A stretch of DNA of 38,874 nt. It comes from a virus. Taxonomy: Duplodnaviria; Heunggongvirae; Uroviricota; Caudoviricetes. The notes beneath the pieces were generated by a model. That model was not told where the DNA came from. It saw only the letters and a program-made list of their open reading frames with translations, and did not search any database. Location: IMG/VR virus record IMGVR_UViG_643692022_000007, one strand, 5' to 3'. The translations under genes were made by a program, and so were the position numbers. Below, piece by piece: positions 1,989 to 32,798 of the stretch (the first letter of the stretch is position 1; every line of letters starts with the position of its first letter).

Positions 1989-4427
1989 TCAAACATTAAG
2001 AGTTTGAATTATATCAGTATTACCTTTATTGTCGACTGGATAGTTACATGATAAAGTTGAATTTATAGTCAAGTTTTCACCAAACCAAAATTTATTTGAT
2101 GTCGATACTGATGAGGACCCAACCCCATCAATTTTTAAACACAACAGAGCATTTATGAAATTATTCCTAACACATCTAATTGTCTTATAGTGAGACAACC
2201 ACGATTGTTCCCCATCGTCTCTAAATAATGTAGCAACACTCTGAGAGATAAATGATTGTGAGGTAATTGTGTTGCAAGTTAACTCCATAATACTATTGGG
2301 TGAACCAAGTGATATACCTGATGGTAAACTAGCAATAACATTACCACCCCTTAGTATATTTCTATTTACTCGAAGTATCTTTGGAGTATAACCGCTTGCG
2401 CTTAAATCAAGAAAAAATGATGAGACAGTACCTAACTGATTACCTGATATTTCTATAACGCAATCAGAAGAACATTTAACATTGAATCTATTATATGTAC
2501 CAGTGAAATTGTTATTTGTTAATGATACTTTTTGATACCCACCTCCAGAGTTACTCCACATAGCTCCAAAAAATGGCGTAGATGGCAAAGATGATGACCA
2601 TCTAAAGTCATTTCCATCAATAAATAGCTCCTTACTATAACTACCAAAACTTAAAGAGCAATTTCTTATTTCATTATCATGAATGAATACACGCTCAAAA
2701 TTACTAACATGTAAGTTGGCGGTTCCTGATGTTAGTAACCTACCCATAATATTATTAGTAAGACGCAGGACTGAATTTGAAATTTCATCTTGATCTACGC
2801 CAATTATCATTCCAGTGCTTGTGATATTAATAATATTGTTATCTATCTTCCAGTCTGAGTTTGTAATATGCGTATACAAAGTTAAAAATGACGGCGCGGA
2901 AAAATAATTGTCCGATATGGATACATTATAAGAATTCATAATGTAATCATTATTTCCAGATATTCCTAAAAGAAGGATTCTATCCTTTGAACGGACGGTA
3001 TTACCTGTAATTTCTATACTATGAGCCCATCCTGTGTCAAACCACTCAGTCCCCCTGTTGGTGTATACCATCATCCAATAGCCACTAGTTGTAGCAGTAT
3101 TTCCAGATACTGTTATTTGCCCCCATGACTGTATAGCATATTCAGATCCAACCATACCATGCCCCGTATCGAATGCCATGCATCCATCAATACAATCAAA
3201 CGTATTGCCGGTAACATCATATCTGTTAAACCCAAATCGACCTTTAACTGCACCATTTCCACGAGTATTTATTCTATTTCTGAAAGTATTGCCGGTTACT
3301 GTAATATCACCAATTAATATACCATTTCCTTGATTGGCAAATGCTTGACCAGCACAGTACACAGCATGGTCATACCATCCAAGAAATGAGTTTCCAGAAA
3401 CACGCAAATTCCGCGCATTCCCTGCTATACAACTGCCAGGAGCATCTTTAAAAACCATATCAAAAACGACCAGTCCTGACGTTTTTTTGTCATGGTTATA
3501 ATATGTCTCACCAGCAACTGGAATATTACCATCAGGACCATGTATATAAGGAGACGTACCACCTGGTTCGATATCACCATAATAAGTTTGGTCTGGAATT
3601 CCTGTAGTGCTGCTGGTTCCCGATGCCGCAACTTCAATTGAACGTGCATTACCATCAATTTGTAACCCATGCACCGACTGAGCACCTACAGCACCACTCA
3701 GGAATCGGAATAATTTACGGGTATCTCTTGCCGGATCAATCTCGGTCGTAGAACCTTCAACAAAGTATGTGCGATACCGGCGAGTAATAGTTGCTGAACC
3801 ATCGCCCCATACTGAACGAACATATGACCATACATTAACAGCCGAATCAAAACAGTATATTCCAGTTGGGAAGTATACGGAGCATTTAAGATTATGCGCC
3901 TCATCCATGACCATCTGAACTTTAGGCTGATGGTTTATTGAAAGGTCACCAGATGCCAAAGCAGCCAGCTCTGCTTCGTTCATATATTTTGTAGCCAGAA
4001 TACTTGGTGTCTTCTCTACATATTCATCAAGTGTTCCATATCGGGTGTTTACAAGAGAACCATTGCCATTAGCTAATTCAAGGCGCAACTGGTCAGGATC
4101 GTATTTCAGTACATTAGGATAATAGAACTGCTGTGCCCCGTACGCATCATAAACAGCCATAGAATGGCCTTGCACAGTTACGAACTTGGCAATCTGTCCG
4201 TTATATACCGGATATCCAGCGGCGTTAATGATGATTGGTTGCGATACAGGAACGTGAGAACCGTCTTCGTTTTCCACATAAACCTGAATCTGGTTTTCAG
4301 GATTTACAGGGTCAGTGTCAATTTTACCGATATAAATTTTGCCATTGGCAACCGCTTTAAAAGAACGCGCCATAGTGAAAAGTTGCGAAGGCATCGATAC
4401 GATCACATTGGCTGTAATGTCTGTCAT
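1989..4427 (-). CDS. gp9: Tailspike protein: P22-type N-terminal head-binding domain fused to a divergent beta-helix receptor-binding domain
   Basis: 812 aa. The first ~110 residues ([58 protein letters not shown]...) closely match the remembered P22 tailspike N-terminus. The rest has repeated xTGNTx motifs typical of a right-handed beta-helix. The 3' two-thirds of the gene is AT-rich. Confidence 0.9.
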
Positions 4428-13290: not shown

Positions 13291-14201
13291 TATCGAATTC
13301 CTTTATTCAGTTGCGCCTTGAGCTTACGGTACGTCTCTACATCCCCTTTGTTTGCTGCCGCTTCCATCTGCTTTTCAATCGCAGAGATATTTGCAGCAAC
13401 AGCGTGTCCCTGAATGGGTTCATCAGGTAACGGGGCTTCTGAAACAGGTTTGGCTCGAGGCTTTAGAGTTAAACGTTCTGACAGTCGAGTGAGTTCAATC
13501 AGCGCGGATTGCCCGTCCATCGCCAGCAACTGGCGTGTTTTCTCAGGATTAGCACCAAGGTGATACATGAGAGCGGCGGATTTCTCAGGGAAGAGGCGCA
13601 TGATGTCGGCACCGACTGCTGGCGGCACCAGTTGCATGAATGCATCCTCTTTCTCCTGATAGTCAGGGATATTGAGCTTTTCCGCTGCGTCGTAGTGCTT
13701 ACGGGCTGCCTCGACGTATTGCGCTGATTGCTGGGTGAACTCCTGAGTTTTGCGACCCTGCTCGGCGACAGCCTGGCTTCGTGCGTCCATAGCCTTGATC
13801 TGCCATTCACTGTTTGCCTGCTGGAAGGCAGCCAGTGCGCGGCTCTGGTCATAGTCGTACTTAGCCAGTGCGTCTTCGGAAAGATAATCGTTAGGGTCTG
13901 GTTGTTTTGGTAACTCAGGGTTCACCCGCAGGTGCTCCGGCAACTCTCCACGCTTAACCGCTTCCATCTGCTGCTCAAGCTCACGCTGGCGTTTGCGTTC
14001 GATGCGGCGACGGGCAAATTCAGCATTAGTTGCCGGGTCTTGTTTTGGTTTCTCATCGTCTTTCAGGACAATCTCGAAGCCTTCTTCCTGACCTGCGTTG
14101 TCGTTGGCATTATCGACAACTAAGCCATCAGCAGATGCCGCTGCATGATTGCCGGGCAGGGTTAATTCTTCAGAAGCCTGAATGTCGGTGGTTTGGTCCA
14201 T
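13290..14201 (-). CDS. gp8: Scaffolding protein, P22 gp8 family
   Basis: 303 aa, the same length as P22 gp8 and a close match ([50 protein letters not shown]...). Confidence 0.9.
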
Positions 14202-16380: not shown

Positions 16381-17880
16381 TTAAGTTCTCCGTGCGATGG
16401 GCCTGATTGGGGCTGGTATCTTTTTCTCTTTTGGTTTTTTGATGTCGCGCATCATTTTGGCGAAGCGGCGCATCATGTATGCATAGCGAACGGCGGAGAG
16501 AACGTCATCGTTAAGCTTGACGATTTTCCCGTTTTCATCACGGTGATAGAGGCGGAACTCCTCAAAGAATGGCTCACAGGTGTTGAATACTTTGAAGCGA
16601 CCATCGAGCATCATGTCGCGCAATTCAGTGATGCCAGGCTCCACCGCGTTACCGCCATCAGGCCATGTCGCATGCTCCTGCAACATCATAAAACCAGCAT
16701 CTGCATACTGCCCTTTGAGCTGCTCACCGCCGCCCTTCTCGTGCTGATTTCCGTCATGAGGCCATGCTGTTGGCACTTTATGCGCCCATGATTTAACAGC
16801 TCCCCATGCCTGAACGGCTGTTTTTTCTTTCGCCTTCCACACGCGTGAAACGTAGATTGTGTCTGCGTCCTTATCCCACCAAAGCTGAACCTGCGCCTGT
16901 GGGTGATCCCATCCGAAATCCATCCCGCCAATTACGTAGAAGTGATCAGGACACTCGAACGGCTGGCACTTAATCGTCTCTTCCGGTATCTGGAAGATTC
17001 GACCGCTACCCATCGTAGGAATACCGCGAGCACGAGCCTCTCTCTCATGCTCGGGATAGGATGCGATGATTTGCTCTTTCTGCTCGTCGGTGTAGTGCTC
17101 AGCGTCGTAGATGGTCATGTTGACCACTTTCTGCGACTTGCTTGGATTCTTCAGGAACTTGGTAACAACGTCAGACATCCCCATCAGCGGGGTAAACGTC
17201 AGAATTGAGAATTGCCCGTATTTGTTGGTACGGGTAAGACCTTCGCCATAAATGCTGTATGGTGGTTCTTCGTCAAACCACACGCCGTGGATTGTGTCAC
17301 CCTGCCAGCGAGCACGGCCTTGCGAGTATGGCTTGAAGTAGCAGATTGAAATGCCATCTTCAACGCCATCAGCCGTGTGATGCTTAACCAGAAGATGATC
17401 AACAAGGTTCGGAAAGAAAGGAGACTTCTTCCAGCTAATGATGTCTTCTTTCGGTATGGAACCGTAGCCAGGCTCATCATTCTCTTCAATACGACCGCAC
17501 AGGATGCGTTGAGTCGTTTTGGTTACAGTCTCGTTTGTCTCGCCACCAATCCAGAAGACAACAGGCTCATAAAAACGCTTACCTTTCCACTCACCGCCAT
17601 ATTTACCATCAGCAGGATAGCCTTTTGTGCCCGGATAACGCCCTGTAAGGTGAAACGCTACTTCAGCAGCACCAGTAAATGACTTACCAAGCTGGTTACC
17701 AGCCATAAAACAGCGCTCTGGATAGTCATGCCCGGCGTCGATGAACTCACGCTGTTTGCTGTATGGCGTAAATTCATATAGCAGGTGTGTGTTCCGGTAG
17801 TTCTCTTCTTCTTCGAGTAGCTCGAGCAATTCGATTTGCTCTTCGTCGCTCAGGTTATCAAGAATCGCGTCCAGTTCCAC
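16381..17880 (-). CDS. gp2: Terminase large subunit, P22 gp2 family
   Basis: 499 aa, the same length as P22 gp2; directly downstream of terS and overlapping it. Confidence 0.9.
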
Positions 17881-18352
17881 GGTTGAATAGCTCCTTGATA
17901 CGAGAGCGTCGCTTATCGCGATCTCCCTTATCAGGTGTCACGTCTTCAACTTGCGACTGCTCTTTGAGGCCCAAATCACGGGCGATGATGTTAGCGTTGA
18001 GAAGGTCAGCGGCTGCGCCAGAGAATTTCTGGTCGTAGATGACCTGCTCTGCTCGCGTAACGACTTCAGATAAATCTTCTCGCAGGCGATATGTGCGCCA
18101 TGTTTCAAGCGTCACATCAATGAACAGAGTGAGGCCTGTAATAGTCATCGCTCGCATCTTGGCGATAGGCTCTTGTATCACTTCACCCTGATACGAGAAC
18201 GCCTTCATCTCCCATAGCGGGTTAGCTTCTACCCACTCGAAGTATTCACAACAAGCAGCCCACAGCGCCTCAGGCGATTCGAATTTAGGATTTCGCCCAT
18301 GACTACTGCGGGCCTCCCAAAATCGGTTGCCCTTTGGTGCTGCCATATTCAT
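17858..18352 (-). CDS. gp3: Terminase small subunit, P22 gp3 family
   Basis: 164 aa, near-identical to remembered P22 gp3 ([50 protein letters not shown]...); contains the pac sequence. Confidence 0.9.
18058..18079 (-). other. pac: pac site (P22-type headful packaging recognition sequence) inside terS
   Basis: Minus-strand sequence GAAGATTTATCTGAAGTCGTTA, encoding EDLSEVV of TerS; matches the remembered P22 pac consensus. Confidence 0.75.
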
Positions 18353-18369
18353 CTCACTTAGCTGTTATT

Positions 18370-18549
18370 TCAGGCTGAGGACTCTTTCGCGCCTTCAATC
18401 AATGACTGCTTCAGCAATTCAAGTGTGCCAATCGCCTCGCATAAACTGATTTCACCATCGTAATCATGGATGACGCTTTCCAGCCTCTCGTATAGCTCTT
18501 GAGTAATTGGGAATTTCTTCTCCTTACCCAAATTGATTACGCGGCTCAC
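18370..18549 (-). CDS. Possible small protein (about 59 aa, GTG start) between ORF80 and terS
   Basis: Hand-translated open frame VSRVINLGKEKKFPITQELYERLESVIHDYDGEISLCEAIGTLELLKQSLIEGAKESSA with GGAG about 6 nt upstream of GTG. Below the 60-aa track cutoff. Confidence 0.25.
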   Translation of the reverse strand: MSRVINLGKEKKFPITQELYERLESVIHDYDGEISLCEAIGTLELLKQSLIEGAKESSA

Positions 18550-18550
18550 A

Positions 18551-18793
18551 TCATGCTCCGGTAGTGAACAGGTCTAACGCTTCCTTCGATTTACGCACCG
18601 CTTCAAATGTGCGGATCGTGATATCCGAATTAGCGCCGCCTGACTGGAAGTGAATTTTGAATAGCTCAAGCTTCAGTTCGTCAGTGCCAATGAACTGAAA
18701 TGCTTCTTCTGCGGCTGCGTTCTGGTTCATGACCAGTTTGTAAATCTCTAACTGGAATTTCTGTTCTTCAGTCATGGGAATAATCTCTGCCAT
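18551..18793 (-). CDS. Hypothetical protein in the P22 orf80 position
   Basis: 80-aa ORF with GGAG before the ATG, between rha and terS; no domain recognised. Confidence 0.5.
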   Translation of the reverse strand: MAEIIPMTEEQKFQLEIYKLVMNQNAAAEEAFQFIGTDELKLELFKIHFQSGGANSDITIRTFEAVRKSKEALDLFTTGA

Positions 18794-19145
18794 TGTTGGC
18801 TCCGTTTATCCGTTAAAAGGGATATCAGTTAAGTTATCCCGTGTAGGGTATAAGCCATTGTCGAGACCATTCATTGAATGGCCTCTGCAATAACCGATGT
18901 CTTTCCATCAGTCCGCCACCACAAAGAATCTTTTTTGCCATAAGGCAGGAGGTTCATCTTTCAGTGGCTGCCAGTGTTATTTCCCCACTTACTGGCTTGG
19001 GTTGTGTCGCTGTACTTCCGTAACTGGTGGTGCACAGATTTAGTTAAATCTGTTCTCGCCTGAACTATCTTTTACATACCCGGATTGTGGGGATGTAAAT
19101 CACGGTTTCATTATCAAGCCCACCCGTAGATGGGCTTTGGAATGG

Positions 19146-19664
19146 TCACTTTGGCAGTCCGGGGATCGATATTTGCGCCTGCTGCTCAAGCCTTTCGATT
19201 CTTGCTATGAGTTGCGGTTTTTTGATCCTGCCCCAGCGGTTCAGCAAGCGTCCTGACATACTGGCAACATCCTTTTCCTTCATGAACTCCAGCATTAACT
19301 CGTTGTGCTCTCTTTGGTATGAGTGAGCCATCTCCATCAGCCTGTCACGCATCCAATTAAATGCTTTGATAAACGCCTCTTTGATGGCGGCAGCTTTTTT
19401 GCCGGTAAACGACATGATGATGTACATCGCACCGTCTTTGGAAATTTCATATTCAACATACTGATTACCCTTGTGTTCATAGGTAACCCGCGAAAAGTTG
19501 CTGGTTAGAAATTCATCCGAACAGTCTAGCTTTTCGATTTTCTGAATGATGTGGTGATGCTGCTTGTCGAAGTAAGCTGCTACCTTGCGGGAGGTTGTGA
19601 TCACGCGATCACCAGAAACAACCACCATGTCCCGGAAATCGAGATTAGCCAATTGATGATTCAT
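19146..19664 (-). CDS. rha: Rha-family phage regulatory protein
   Basis: From the internal ATG the product MNHQLANLDFRDMVVVSGDRVITTSRKVAAYFDKQHHHIIQKIEKL... is about 172 aa and looks like Rha. The longer track ORF (to 19907) is probably upstream read-through. Confidence 0.65.
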   Translation of the reverse strand: MNHQLANLDFRDMVVVSGDRVITTSRKVAAYFDKQHHHIIQKIEKLDCSDEFLTSNFSRVTYEHKGNQYVEYEISKDGAMYIIMSFTGKKAAAIKEAFIKAFNWMRDRLMEMAHSYQREHNELMLEFMKEKDVASMSGRLLNRWGRIKKPQLIARIERLEQQAQISIPGLPK

Positions 19665-19804
19665 AGCGTCTTTACCTTTTAGAAAGTGAGCCTGTCTCAC
19701 AGAAAAGCCGCCCGAGAGAGGTCGCCACCTATAACGGCATTTCTCAGGCTCGCTTACTGAAAGGCTCTCGTTAATATGCGCGTGAGATGCGCTGTGAAAT
19801 TCAG

Positions 19805-19832
19805 ATATAAAAAAGCCCCGCGAATGCGAGGC
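19805..19832 (-). terminator. Rho-independent terminator downstream of the lysis cassette
   Basis: Minus-strand hairpin GCCTCGC-attc-GCGGGGC (one mismatch) followed by TTTTTTATATCTG. Confidence 0.6.
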
Positions 19833-20006
19833 TAAATCCTGGTGTTTGTGATGACTGGCTCTTATCTCAACGCAGCCCCTTACCGCGCGCCATATGCTTA
19901 ACTTCAAGCATCAGCAATGAGATGTTTAATCTGGATTCACTCCAGAAGTGATCACCACCCTGTCTACAGAGCCAGATGTGAAGGATGATGAGTAAAATTA
20001 TCGCTA

Positions 20007-20474
20007 TCATCGAAGGCATTGCGTCCTGATGTATTCCTGAAGCGTTCTCAGTGCTGTTTGGTCGCGGATAATTCCGTCCCGGACACCGAGAACGTTTCGT
20101 CCAGCAACTGGAGAGAGTTCGACGGTGGCATCATTGCCCATGCCGGAGGTGCGGGAGGTTTCGGTTGAGGCTGGCACTTGACACTTTCCTTTGACGAGCA
20201 CCCTGCCACCATTATCAAGCTTGCGCCGAAGAGCATCATTTTCAGCTTTCGCATCAGCTAACTCCTTCGTGTATTTAGCATCGAGTGCATCAGCAGAACG
20301 CTGGCGCTGCTGCATGTCAGCGATGGTGGCGGTCGCCTGCTTCAGCTCACTGACTTTTTTATCACGCTGTTCTTTATAGGTAATGGCGTTATCACGGTAA
20401 TGATTAACCGCCCATGACAGACAGACGATGATGCAGATAACCAGAGCGGAGATAATCGCGGTTACTCTGCTCAT
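20007..20474 (-). CDS. Rz: Rz i-spanin
   Basis: [34 protein letters not shown]... matches remembered lambda Rz; N-terminal TM helix plus coiled coil; ATGA overlap with the endolysin stop. Confidence 0.85.
20048..20254 (-). CDS. Rz1: Rz1 o-spanin lipoprotein, embedded in the +1 frame of Rz
   Basis: [21 protein letters not shown]... has a signal peptide and lipobox (VAGC) followed by a Pro-rich segment ([11 protein letters not shown]), like lambda Rz1. Confidence 0.75.
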
Positions 20475-20974
20475 TGTTGCCCCCACAAACAGACTTCACG
20501 CTCAATCTCACGGCGAGTCATCAGCCCTTTCCATTGCTTACCGCCAGCGTATGTCCAGCGCCGTAGCTGATCACATGCGCCTTTGATATCACCCTGGTTT
20601 ATTTTGCGAAGAAGCGTCGATGTTCTGAAATTGCCAGCACCCACGTTGTAGACGAACGAGTAAAGAGCGCCGCGCGTTGTTTCCGGTATATCGACTTTGA
20701 TGTACGGGTTAATTTGTCTGGCGACCGTGGCAAGGTCTTTATTCAGGAGGGCTTTGCATTCTGCTTCGGTATACGTTTTACCGAGCATGATGTCTTTTCC
20801 GGTGTGTCCGTGACATACAGTCCATACACCAACAATATCTTTGTATGGTATGTAGCTAACACCTTCCAAACCATCGTTACCACTTGGTCCAGTGATTAAC
20901 ACAGATGCTATAGCAATAGCCCCGCCACTTATCGCCGCTATTACGCTATTTCGTAGTGCCGGTGACATTGCCAT
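20471..20974 (-). CDS. R: SAR-type endolysin (phage 21 R-like lysozyme)
   Basis: 167 aa; Gly/Ala-rich weakly hydrophobic N-terminus ([19 protein letters not shown]), then a lysozyme domain matching remembered phage 21 R. Confidence 0.85.
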
Positions 20975-21149
20975 TCAATCTGTCCTCGCGCTCTTTGCGC
21001 TTGTAGTACCAGTTGATGCCAAATGTGCCGACAGTACAAAGAATACCAATGATGACAGCCCAGTCATTCAGGGAGAGAATGCCACCCATCGCAGTCAGTC
21101 CTCCGAAGCTGTAACTGAACCATTCTCTGATTTTGTCCATACGGTACAT
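20946..21149 (-). CDS. S: Class II holin (pinholin-like) with dual-start motif
   Basis: 67 aa with two predicted TM helices and a charged C-terminus (KRKEREDR); N-terminal MYRMDKI has two Met separated by a basic residue; lies directly upstream of the SAR endolysin. Confidence 0.7.
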
Positions 21150-21155
21150 GCTCTA

Positions 21156-21171
21156 CCCCTTCATTGAGGGG
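21156..21171 (-). promoter_or_regulatory. Stem-loop just upstream of the holin start, analogous to the lambda sdi structure
   Basis: Minus-strand CCCCTCAATGAAGGGG hairpin a few nt before the holin ATG, where lambda has CCCCTTATTGGGGG. Confidence 0.5.
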
Positions 21172-21547
21172 ATTTGCTCTATTTAATTAGGAATAAGGTC
21201 GATTACTGATAGAACAAATCCAGGCTACTGTGTTTAGTAATCAGATTTGTTCGTGACCGATATGCACGGGCAAAACGGCAGGAGGTTGTTAGCGCAACCT
21301 CTTGCCACCCGCTTTCACGAAGGTCATGTGTAGAAGGCCGCAGCGTAACTATCACTGATGAATTCAGGATAGCCAGTGGCTACGGCTCAGTTTGGGTTGT
21401 GCTGTTGCTGGGCGGCGATGACGCCTGTACGCATTTGTTGATCCGGTTCTGCTTCCGGTATTCGCTTAATTCAGCACAACGGAAAGAGCACTCGGTGCAT
21501 TTAAGCCAAGCCCCATAAGGGAGAATGCTCTTACCTGTTGTGCAGAT

Positions 21548-21742
21548 ATAAAAAATCCCGAAACCGTTATGCAGGCTCTAACTATTACCTGCGAACTGTT
21601 TCGGGATTGCATTTTGCAGACCTCTCTGCCTGCGATGGTTGGAGTTCCAGACGATACGTCGAAGTGACCAACTAGGCGGAATCGGTAGTAAGCGCCGCCT
21701 CTTTTCATCTCACTACCACAACGAGCGAATTAACCCATCGTT
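21548..21742 (-). ncRNA. 6S-type short pR' transcript ending at tR'
   Basis: Region matches remembered lambda pR'-tR' sequence; terminator hairpin AATCCCGAAAC(A/C)GTT...AACGGTTTCGGGATT plus T-run at about 21549-21607. Confidence 0.7.
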
Positions 21743-21780
21743 GAGTCAAATTTACCCAATTTTATTCAATAAGTCAATAT
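21743..21780 (-). promoter_or_regulatory. Late promoter pR' with overlapping qut site
   Basis: Minus-strand TTGACTTATTGAATAAAATTGGGTAAATTTGACTCAACG, matching remembered lambda pR' (-35 TTGACT, -10 TAAATT), directly downstream of Q. Confidence 0.75.
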
Positions 21781-21819
21781 CATGCCGTTAATATGTTGCC
21801 ATCCGTGGCAATCATGCTG

Positions 21820-22443
21820 CTAACGTGTGACCGCGTTCAAAATGTTGTCTGCGATTGACTCTTCCTTGTGGCATTGCACCACCAGAGCGTCATACAGCGG
21901 CTTAACAGTGCGTGACCAGGTGGGTTGGGTAAGGTTTGGGATTAGCATCGTCACAGCGCGATATGCTGCGCTTGCTGGCATCCTTGAATAGCCGACGCCT
22001 TTGCATCTTCCGCACTCTTTCTCGACAACTCTCCCCCACTGCTCTGTTTTTGCTATATCAACCGCGCGGCCTGTACCGTGGCAATCTCTGCATCTTGCGC
22101 CCGGCGTGGCGGCACTACGGCAATAATCCGCATAAGCGAATGTTGCGAGCACTTGCAGTACCTTTGCCTTAGTATTTCCTTCAAGCTTTGCCACACCACG
22201 GTATTTCCCCGATACCTTGTGTGCAAATTGCATCAGATAGTTGATAGCCTTTTGTTTGTCGTTCTGGCTGAGTTCGTGCTTACCGCAGAATGCAGTCATA
22301 CCGAATCCGGCTTGTGATTGCGCCATCCCCATAGCAGCCATCACATCAGTACCGGAAAGAGAGTCAGAAGCCGTGGCCCGTGGTGAGTCGCTCATCATCG
22401 GGCTTTTTGGCGAATGAAATTTAGCTACGCTTTCGAGTCTCAT
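21820..22443 (-). CDS. Q: Late-gene antiterminator Q (lambda-type)
   Basis: 207 aa, essentially identical to remembered lambda Q ([49 protein letters not shown]...). Confidence 0.95.
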
Positions 22444-32304: not shown

Positions 32305-32428
32305 CAGGTAACTTAAGCGTATTTACTTTCGCAGCAAACAACTTATTTGAGGTGAGATATGGAAGAAGAATTTGAAGAGTTCGAAGAGCATCCTCAGGAT
32401 GTGATGGAACAATACCAGGACTATCCGT

Positions 32429-32629
32429 ATGACTACGACTATTGATAAAAATCAATGGTGTGGACAATTCAAGCGATGCAATGGATGCAAGCTGCAATCG
32501 GAATGCATGGTTAAGCCTGAAGAAATGTTTCCTGTAATGGAAGATGGGAAATATGTCGATAAATGGGCAATACGAACGACGGCAATGATTGCCAGAGAAC
32601 TTGGTAAACAGAATAACAAGGCTGCCTGA
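32429..32629 (+). CDS. Hypothetical small Cys-containing protein (start uncertain)
   Basis: 66-aa track ORF MTTTIDKNQWCGQFKRCNGCKLQSEC...; overlaps an upstream 28-aa acidic ORF that has the better SD. Confidence 0.3.
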   Translation: MTTTIDKNQWCGQFKRCNGCKLQSECMVKPEEMFPVMEDGKYVDKWAIRTTAMIARELGKQNNKAA

Positions 32630-32669
32630 TGGTGGCCTTTATTTTTGGCATAAACAACAGAATAAATAC

Positions 32670-32709
32670 TGCTCCGTGTATTCATTCCAACGAGTGAATA
32701 CACGGAGCA
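32670..32709. repeat. 15-bp perfect inverted repeat (strong hairpin)
   Basis: TGCTCCGTGTATTCA-(10 nt)-TGAATACACGGAGCA, between the small-ORF cluster and the coiled-coil gene. Confidence 0.85.
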
Positions 32710-32798
32710 ATGTCGCTCGTAACTAAACAGGAGCCGACTTGTTCTGATTATTGGAAATCTTCTTTGCCCTCCAGTGTGGGGGCTTTTTTGATGGAGGA

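Follow-up and report, generated by a model that had tools for sequence, protein, structure and literature searches.

A duplicated, conserved stem-loop at an unoccupied cargo-gene site upstream of the packaging genes of a P22-like phage

Why should a phage genome that is otherwise densely filled with genes leave several hundred nucleotides without a sizeable open reading frame (ORF) just upstream of its packaging genes? This question is raised by positions 18370 to 19145 of the IMG/VR record IMGVR_UViG_643692022_000007, a Caudoviricetes sequence of 38,874 nucleotides (here called the window). On the minus strand of this region, the gene rha is followed by an ORF-free stretch of 352 nt (the gap), two small ORFs, and the terminase gene terS. 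A first-pass annotation had pointed to a hairpin in the gap, had proposed that the gap might hold the promoter of the packaging operon or a structured RNA, and had suggested that the two small proteins could be packaging accessories or a toxin/antitoxin-like pair. While these observations were correct, the interpretation was mostly not borne out. The overall picture that we consider probable is that of an empty cargo-gene hot spot accompanied by two conserved late genes, with stem-loops that serve both as intercistronic RNA elements and as recombination linkers. The identities of the genes, their location in the late operon, the nature of the hot spot, the presence of a duplicated, conserved, and sense-oriented stem-loop, and the existence of recombination joints within that stem-loop are all directly supported by our comparisons; a specific role of the stem-loops in RNA stability or processing is put forward only tentatively.

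The hairpin seen in the first-pass annotation proved to be real. On the minus strand, it consists of a 9-bp stem (19129-19137 paired with 19116-19124) and an outer 4-bp stem (19141-19144 paired with 19109-19112). A covariance model matched this first copy at 19104 to 19149 (57.4 bits; E = 2e-11), where a 2x2 internal loop separates the lower stem (CATT/AATG) from a 9-bp upper stem (AAGCCCAUC/GGUGGGCUU) that is capped by a UACG loop. A second copy was matched at 18851 to 18897, also on the minus strand (57.8 bits; E = 1.6e-11). Its lower stem has four core pairs (AUUG/CAAU; at most eight in the predicted fold), the internal loop is CA/GA, and the upper stem of 10 bp (GAGGCCAUUC/GAAUGGUCUC) is capped by an AAU loop. 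The two copies align as a single motif of ~46 nt, with lower stem (G)CCAUU/AAUGG(C), a 2x2 loop CA/GA, an upper stem of 9 to 10 bp, and a variable loop; according to the model, the window contains exactly two copies. A candidate third copy at 3451 to 3499 (minus strand) reached only 16.2 bits (E = 0.11), lies inside an 812-amino-acid (aa) ORF (1989 to 4427), and is probably a chance match.

In 86 related loci, the same model found 140 copies, all on the sense strand of the late operon and only at these two positions. Across these copies (57 distinct sequences), 94.6% of the 905 pair cells were paired, compared to 30 to 53% when the partners were slid, and 6 of the 16 hairpin pairs showed double changes; for 12 representatives, 96% of the pair cells were paired versus 29 to 54% with slid partners, and five pairs changed on both sides. 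Extraction, from every locus, of the sequence that precedes a conserved anchor also revealed a second allele of copy 2 (18891 to 18857; ATTACA AAAGCCATTC ... GAGTGGCTTT GATAAT), represented, depending on the position, in 17 to 41 of ~80 distinct sequence rows. This allele keeps every pair, by way of three double changes from G-C to A-U, one change from G.U to G-C, and one from U-A to U.G. Such compensatory changes point to selection on structure and not merely to shared ancestry. Moreover, 50 of the 57 distinct sequences share one U.G wobble, and toggles between C-G and U-G are common; since these combinations pair only in the sense RNA, the pattern favors pairing of the sense-strand RNA over a symmetric DNA site. 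The earlier suggestion of a structured RNA stands in part, in that two of the hairpins in the gap represent one conserved stem-loop with covariation, but no Rfam family matched and the rest of the predicted structure does not covary: compensatory substitutions were found for the hairpin motif and not for 18896 to 19021.

The stem-loop is found next to a wide range of genes. In more than 100 loci, it follows the stop codons of genes encoding Rha, HkbL, Rz, an Sf6 g65-like protein, and others. In a further 119 contigs found by pattern, the genes upstream of it differ widely; it starts 7 to 20 nt past their stop codons, often in overlap with the codon (TAG CCATTA...). Downstream, depending on the phage, it precedes genes encoding DUF2560 proteins, P22-type or other types of TerS, or HNH proteins.

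On the basis of sequence comparisons, the gap is the previously described insertion site for morons (cargo genes) that separates the lysis/rha genes from those for DNA packaging, and in the window it is empty. According to Cenens et al. (2013, PMC3573128), the gene pid sits between orf25 and orf80, a position at which relatives have another insert or, as in PS34, none; the promoter, long 5' untranslated region, and terminator of pid have been mapped (Wolput et al. 2022, PMC8835761). The window shares its genomic position with the pid locus of P22 and BTP1, and its positions 19021 to 18835 and 18807 onward are 92 to 97% identical to the pid flanks. However, it lacks pid, the promoter Ppid, and the pid terminator, being unoccupied as in HK620 and PS34, and it has an additional upstream hairpin and spacer (19022 to 19149) that are absent from P22 and BTP1.

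Pairwise BLAST comparisons with annotated relatives resolved the gap into mosaic segments, all read here on the minus strand. Segment a (19151 to 19103) comprises the first hairpin and directly follows Rha, HkbL, Sf6 gene 65, or the Rz gene of ST64T; it is also present in HK97, Shiga toxin (Stx) phage 2851, and SPN3UB. Segment b (19022 to 19102) is a lineage-specific spacer that occurs only in the HK620, Sf6, Gally, and IME10 types, while HK97, ST64T, and mEpX1 have 10 to 25 nt in its place; it contains two further predicted hairpins, at 19072 to 19098 and in a 20-bp near-palindrome at 19034 to 19053, neither of which shows evidence of covariation. The near-palindrome (ACAGATTTAACTAAATCTGT), which occurs once in the window and is restricted to the spacer of the HK620/Sf6/Gally type, might serve to bind a protein, or it might be a hairpin and nothing more. 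Segment c (18896 to 19021) is shared by nearly all relatives, including P22, BTP1, HK97, and ST64T, and is followed by the cargo-gene insertion point between 18895 and 18896, empty in the window, which is the exact site of Sf6 gp66 (126 aa), of mEpX1_063, and of the 413-bp and 256-bp inserts of IME10 and Gally, respectively. Segment d (18835 to 18894) separates this point from a second insertion point (18807 to 18835), corresponding to the position of the pid moron, on the opposite strand, in P22 and BTP1: homology to these phages ends at 18835 and restarts at 18807, with pid in between. A small hairpin (18819 to 18840), followed by UUUU, overlaps the second insertion point, and the leader of the DUF2560 gene, after 18807, forms the last segment.

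Between segment c and the DUF2560 leader, at least nine classes of inserts were distinguished, the largest being 1.4 kb, and 78 of 142 loci are empty like the window. With no gene inserted at either 18895/18896 or 18807 to 18835, no promoter-like site, and terminator-like sites only at chance level (three, compared to 1.4 expected from shuffled sequences), the window carries the site and not a moron. Among the occupied loci, the one designated L077 (~2050 to 2790) has an insert of 1.4 kb with a 246-aa ORF between segment c and the second hairpin; other inserts encode proteins of 61, 72 to 85, 80, 89, and 118 to 126 aa, and in one Escherichia coli genome a "Gp49 family protein" is annotated under the insert. 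The breakpoints between mosaic segments cluster at 19096 to 19109 and at 18862 to 18894, and in Stx phage 2851 and several contigs a single hybrid hairpin, which joins the 5' part of the first copy to the 3' flank of the second, replaces everything between the copies. Because of these hybrid hairpins and clustered breakpoints, we conclude that recombination within the shared hairpin sequence evidently does occur.

The noncoding segment between the two hairpins (18896 to 19021, minus strand) is present in P22, BTP1, HK97, ST64T, Sf6, HK620, and 149 loci. While its 5' part (18997 to 19021) varies freely, the remaining 101 nt (18896 to 18996) have a nucleotide diversity (pi) of 0.0145, compared to 0.079 for the third codon positions of the DUF2560 gene and 0.079 for the 5' flank of the core itself (94 haplotypes, from a sample selected in part for loci with the same DUF2560 protein). 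Neither strand of this core has a conserved reading frame, and the helices proposed by RNAalifold include none that covary and show no compensatory changes. Judging from this substitution pattern, we regard 18896 to 18996 as a constrained noncoding element.

How unusual is the gap itself? Positions 18794 to 19145 are indeed free of ORFs of at least 60 aa on both strands (none that overlaps them exceeds 49 aa), and these 352 nt form the longest ORF-free stretch in the window, followed by one of 298 nt; only 6.4% of the window is not covered by ORFs. Since random sequence of the same composition is expected to contain ~18 gaps of this size, the gap is unusual only relative to a genome so densely coded (94% ORF coverage). 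It is 95.5% identical to an unannotated segment of HK620, and pieces of it are present, mostly without annotation, in 2,557 of 5,426 complete E. coli genomes (47%). Papers on epsilon34, on Sf6 evolution, and on LF82/Gally contained nothing on this gap. No tRNA or tmRNA was found in the window. The gap folds better than its shuffles (z = -5.4; z = -3.95 in a separate control). When compared with shuffled sequences, other 352-nt windows on the minus strand, in 21121 to 21824, 13729 to 14080, and 32385 to 32736, equal or surpass the gap in folding (z = -4.3 to -5.2); the region at 21121 to 21824 sits between a Q-like gene (21820 to 22443) and the holin gene (20946 to 21149) and probably holds the late promoter or leader.

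Two short ORFs in the gap were rejected as genes. A 35-aa ORF on the minus strand (18834 to 18941) has no Shine-Dalgarno sequence and a C terminus that varies among relatives (18 to 45 aa). The ORF starting at 18941 corresponds to the start of "orf-118" of ST64T (locus L006, 1648 to 2004), in which an 80-aa DUF2560 homologue (1762 to 2004) is joined in frame to an upstream ORF by a deletion of 34 to 37 nt; a similar fusion is carried by three further loci (L031, L070, and L071), and "orf-118" looks like an annotation artifact. On the plus strand, a 19-aa hydrophobic ORF behind an AGGAGG sequence (18964 to 19023) was dismissed, as its stop codon is not conserved, some relatives have frameshifts, and its length ranges from 19 to 49 aa.

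Taken as a whole, the region forms the distal part of the Q-dependent late operon, on the minus strand, between the lysis/rha accessory block and the packaging genes. It would be transcribed only within the Q-antiterminated late mRNA, the gap presumably having no promoter of its own: a scan for sigma-70 consensus sites (-35 and -10 elements with 16- to 18-nt spacing) yielded none on either strand of 18200 to 19800, compared to a mean of 2.2 in shuffled sequences, and the genes belong to a Q-dependent late operon that starts upstream of the holin gene, which speaks against the suggested packaging-operon promoter. Two stem-loops, the first of which begins at the stop codon of the upstream gene, bracket the constrained core; folded within the polycistronic late mRNA, they might act as intercistronic processing sites or as barriers at 3' ends and might thereby allow the lysis/accessory and packaging/head messages to differ in stability. 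At the level of DNA, the same conserved 40 to 50 bp could serve as linkers whose homology lets recombination exchange, add, or remove cargo cassettes.

Several points weigh against this explanation. The folding, the processing, and the effect on stability in this window are all steps that we infer. The hairpins have no U-tract (the downstream bases read GAUAAUGAAACC for copy 1 and GACAAUGGCUUAUACC for copy 2, and a scan for intrinsic terminators flagged neither), and with 16 to 19 bp interrupted by an internal loop they are shorter than classical RNase III substrates: stems of 7 plus 9 (or 4 plus 10) bp around the 2x2 loop amount to 16 to 19 stacked positions, where about two helical turns would be looked for. 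Since the relatives are 92 to 99% identical, there are few independent compensatory events, which come down essentially to the two alleles of copy 2 and the difference between copies 1 and 2, and relatedness alone can exceed the control with shuffled pairs. The folding strength of the gap (z = -3.95) ranks only fifth among 111 equally sized minus-strand windows (mean z of -0.93, standard deviation of 1.4) and is notable, not exceptional. The constrained core is without an assigned role, and linkage to the DUF2560 gene may have lowered the diversity nearby and exaggerated the contrast described above. Finally, a consensus scan does not exclude a weak promoter or one that is not of the sigma-70 type; the pid promoter is itself a poor match to the consensus.

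This last point leads to the alternatives. One might suppose that the gap controls the packaging genes through a promoter of its own or through a small RNA acting in trans, given that it is the longest noncoding stretch in the window, that its core is constrained in sequence without containing an ORF, and that weak, nonconsensus promoters do exist in this region of relatives, at the neighboring pid locus. However, besides the lack of sigma-70-like sites on both strands where 2.2 would be expected by chance, there is no intrinsic terminator 3' of the core in the sense direction, the core has no compensatory changes (its two common substitutions sit at predicted helix ends), and in almost half of the loci cargo lies between the core and the downstream genes, shifting the spacing by 100 to 1,300 nt, a change that a promoter or leader of the DUF2560 gene and terS would tolerate poorly. 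Nor did the Rfam scan that had been suggested for the gap return a family: none reached the threshold for the gap with its flanks (E of ≤10), for four relatives, or for 14 further loci. The Proteo-phage-1 family (RF03044) was dropped as a candidate, with 16.8 bits against a gathering cutoff of 42, an E value of 4.1, and neither of the two model hairpins retained; none of 18 related loci contains it, no relative has a full copy, and our literature search on this family found nothing. Such an independent control element therefore seems highly unlikely to us.

A second alternative would keep the stem-loop at the level of DNA only, as a palindromic recombination linker or as the site of a dimeric protein (Rha, KilA-N, or HkbN, if the latter resembles ribbon-helix-helix proteins). 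The U.G wobble and the C-G/U-G toggles, however, break the symmetry of the DNA and preserve pairing in the sense RNA only; the stem-loop lies beside many unrelated sets of genes, with or without Rha, KilA-N, or HkbN, so that no candidate binding protein co-occurs with it; and the antisense strand scores 13.6 bits against 57.8, though partly by construction. We consider a purely DNA-level role unlikely. Less charitably, the gap could be functionless debris, consisting of scars of cargo insertion and deletion that are similar through recent ancestry and frequent recombination. This would suit the close identity of the relatives, which makes conservation of the gap alone weak evidence, as well as the lineage specificity of 19022 to 19102, the variable ends of the short ORFs that start in the core, and the deletions that, as with "orf-118" of ST64T, occur in the gap without obvious harm. 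Against it, the core is about five times less diverse than the adjacent third codon positions and its own 5' flank in the same haplotypes, pairing in the hairpin survives double substitutions, and the hairpin persists at this junction even among phages with no neighboring genes in common. The first-pass annotation had itself named a lack of conservation as grounds for abandoning its proposal; both small ORFs and the gap are strongly conserved, and we find the debris explanation quite unlikely.

What, then, of the two small genes downstream of the gap? Both ORFs turned out to be genuine. The first (18551 to 18793, minus strand; 80 aa) has an ATG start with a GGAG Shine-Dalgarno sequence at 18800 to 18803 and is the same gene as P22 orf80, HK620 hkbM, and Sf6 gp67. 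Its product matches Pfam family DUF2560 (PF10834) over the full length of the profile (143.3 bits against a cutoff of 25; residues 5 to 76 on positions 1 to 72 of 72) and phrog_571 (6e-41), and it has 90 homologues, all enterobacterial, down to ~60% identity. The second (18370 to 18549, minus strand; 59 aa) starts with a GTG located 1 nt past the TGA of the DUF2560 gene and 6 nt downstream of a GGAG, an arrangement that suggests translational coupling; this GTG is annotated identically in HK620, P22, and Sf6. Its product corresponds to P22 orf59c, HK620 hkbN, and Sf6 gp68 (here called HkbN), matches PHROG 3546 (phrog_3546) in full (E = 5.7e-43; residues 1 to 59 on positions 1 to 59 of 59), and has dozens of enterobacterial homologues, likewise down to ~60% identity. 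With full-length matches in the same order and at the same place before terS, the pair does not differ notably from its counterparts in P22, HK620, and Sf6, and the protein-typical conservation patterns of both ORFs identify them as real, conserved late genes. A search of our literature sources for DUF2560, orf80, orf59c, and hkbM/N found nothing relevant.

The context of these genes was examined in 80 IMG/VR loci that encode an identical DUF2560 protein. The DUF2560 gene always lies directly upstream of terS, or separated from it by hkbN alone, and the same DUF2560 precedes at least three unrelated terS/terL types; HK97-type phages retain just its first 27 codons, ahead of their HNH gene. HkbN is found between DUF2560 and terS in fewer than half of the loci. 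Wherever HkbN was found, DUF2560 lay upstream of it (79 of 79). HkbN is optional: its absence is precise, with the same junction (18549|18379) in loci L007 and L014 and ~15 others, where terS directly follows DUF2560. A profile of HkbN retrieved ~200 small proteins from a set of 1.84 billion representatives; a Pfam scan of 50 distant relatives gave no family, and two of the distant relatives are not adjacent to terS, being located among early/replication genes or 2.8 kb from terS. AlphaFold2 models of moderate confidence depict DUF2560 as a four-helix protein (predicted local distance difference test score [pLDDT] of 70) and HkbN as two strands and two helices (pLDDT of 76). Neither a Foldseek search of the Protein Data Bank (PDB) with the two models nor sequence searches against the PDB gave a match for either protein. 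When compared with DNA-binding domains of the ribbon-helix-helix (Arc/MetJ/CopG) type, the HkbN model shows a possible resemblance; many members of this class act as antitoxins or, like TraM and TraY, as accessory proteins that bind DNA.

Could the two proteins, then, be a functional packaging pair (terminase accessory factors) or a toxin/antitoxin-like module? Their position directly before terS, the 1-nt spacing of the two genes, the invariable order of HkbN after DUF2560, and the possible likeness of the HkbN model to ribbon-helix-helix domains would all be compatible with this. The packaging proposal draws on position, but the same protein precedes several unrelated types of terS, HkbN is missing from more than half of the loci, and two distant relatives of HkbN are found away from terS. 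The proposal of a toxin/antitoxin pair fares worse, as the obligate co-occurrence expected of type II systems is contradicted by the many loci with DUF2560 and no HkbN, and neither protein matched a known toxin, antitoxin, or defense family in Pfam, NCBIfam, or PADLOC (the best hit being JetB, with an E value of 0.011). Because HkbN is optional, terS types are several, distant relatives occur elsewhere, and no toxin/antitoxin family was matched, the evidence argues against a toxin/antitoxin pair and against an accessory specific to one terminase, and we are very doubtful about either form of this explanation. Our guess is that both are dispensable late accessory proteins, of which HkbN may be a small DNA-binding dimer.

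The surroundings of the locus are those of a P22-like (Lederbergvirus) genome of the HK620/Gally type, as assigned by megablast of the 776 bp from 18370 to 19145. This segment is 96.1% identical over its full length to phage HK620, covering hkbM, hkbN, and the unannotated 353 bp upstream, and large parts of it are 95 to 98% identical to Gally, Sf6, Sf101, P22, BTP1, and ~200 other phage records. All genes of the region are on the minus strand, in the order Rz, rha, ORF-free stretch, 80-aa ORF, 59-aa GTG ORF, terS, and terL; P22 annotates orf25, orf80, and orf59c in the same order. The gene rha (19146 to 19664), the last of the lysis/accessory block, has a stop codon that abuts hairpin copy 1. 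Its 172-aa product, from the ATG at 19664, matches Pfam Phage_pRha (1e-23) and ORF11CD3 (8.8e-24) and the Rha-like regulators of phrog_518 (5.5e-80); a 253-aa ORF with a TTG start (19146 to 19907) is an overextended call, as the Pfam Rha domains fit the 172-aa protein. With the true start of rha at 19664, a second ORF-poor stretch becomes apparent between Rz (20007 to 20486) and rha (~19665 to 20006), holding only a 50-aa ORF (19867 to 20019). The 41 bp just 5' of the rha start (19660 to 19700, minus strand) are 98 to 100% identical to the sequence upstream of hkbK (KilA-N) in HK620 and many contigs, so that sequence is shared despite different downstream genes, as in another "linker" at a module boundary. 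Within the Rz gene, a 68-aa ORF in another frame (20048 to 20254, minus strand) has a lipoprotein-like N terminus and the position of Rz1 of P22 and Sf6. On the other side of the locus, terS (17858 to 18352, minus strand) is of the P22 gp3 type (PF16677 GP3_package, 3.6e-33; phrog_606, 2.3e-72). Among relatives, the diversity of its middle part (18050 to 18230; pi of up to 0.30) far exceeds that of either end and of the neighboring genes, which suggests exchange or diversification of a specificity-determining segment. According to the Gally paper, the pac site of this close relative maps inside terS and not in the gap.

Neither the two ORFs (as homologues of P22 orf80 and orf59c) nor the pid/cargo hot spot is new, and the window provides a further example of both, with the hot spot empty. 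The twin hairpin and the constrained core are modest additions, annotated neither in the phage records examined nor by the Prokaryotic Genome Annotation Pipeline (PGAP) or Rfam. Two kinds of known elements invite comparison with the hairpin. Both the RNase III sites of T7 and the repetitive extragenic palindromic (REP) elements of E. coli are intercistronic mRNA stem-loops. By analogy, the phage element likewise appears as a stable hairpin with an internal loop and without a U-tract, placed right after a stop codon in a polycistronic mRNA and repeated regionally; unlike them, it shows no sequence similarity, its helix (16 to 19 bp) is shorter than that of typical RNase III substrates, and it occurs in one or two copies per genome and always at one junction, so that we claim membership in neither class. 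It also resembles the boundary ("linker") sequences that the Susskind-Botstein model describes for lambdoid phages, in that it is short and conserved and lies between genes where mosaic joints accumulate. One such boundary sequence (bsq7) is annotated nearby, in Rz, in the record of Sf6; the hairpin differs from these sequences in its compensatory changes and is not among the bsq features annotated in the stretch of Sf6 that we examined.

At its most far-reaching, the comparison might be taken to mean that the twin stem-loops and the 101-nt core form a dedicated, undescribed cis-acting unit of the late operons of lambdoid phages, either a docking site for cargo capture or a regulatory RNA; we regard this as a long shot. 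If it were true, the docking site would stand for capture of cargo at hairpin-defined junctions, functionally analogous to the attC sites of integrons, the regulatory RNA would set the ratio of lysis/accessory to packaging/head gene expression, and the unit would be common to P22-like, HK97-like, and Stx phages and about half of the E. coli genomes. More soberly, the hot spot gains a defined skeleton, namely, a stem-loop with compensatory changes, found once or twice at the very junction of the lysis/accessory block with the packaging genes, together with the constrained noncoding core. Should the hairpin indeed be an element of mRNA processing or stability, it would help to explain how the late operons of lambdoid phages tolerate frequent insertion of cargo without disturbance of head-gene expression, and it would provide a convenient landmark for finding morons in prophages.

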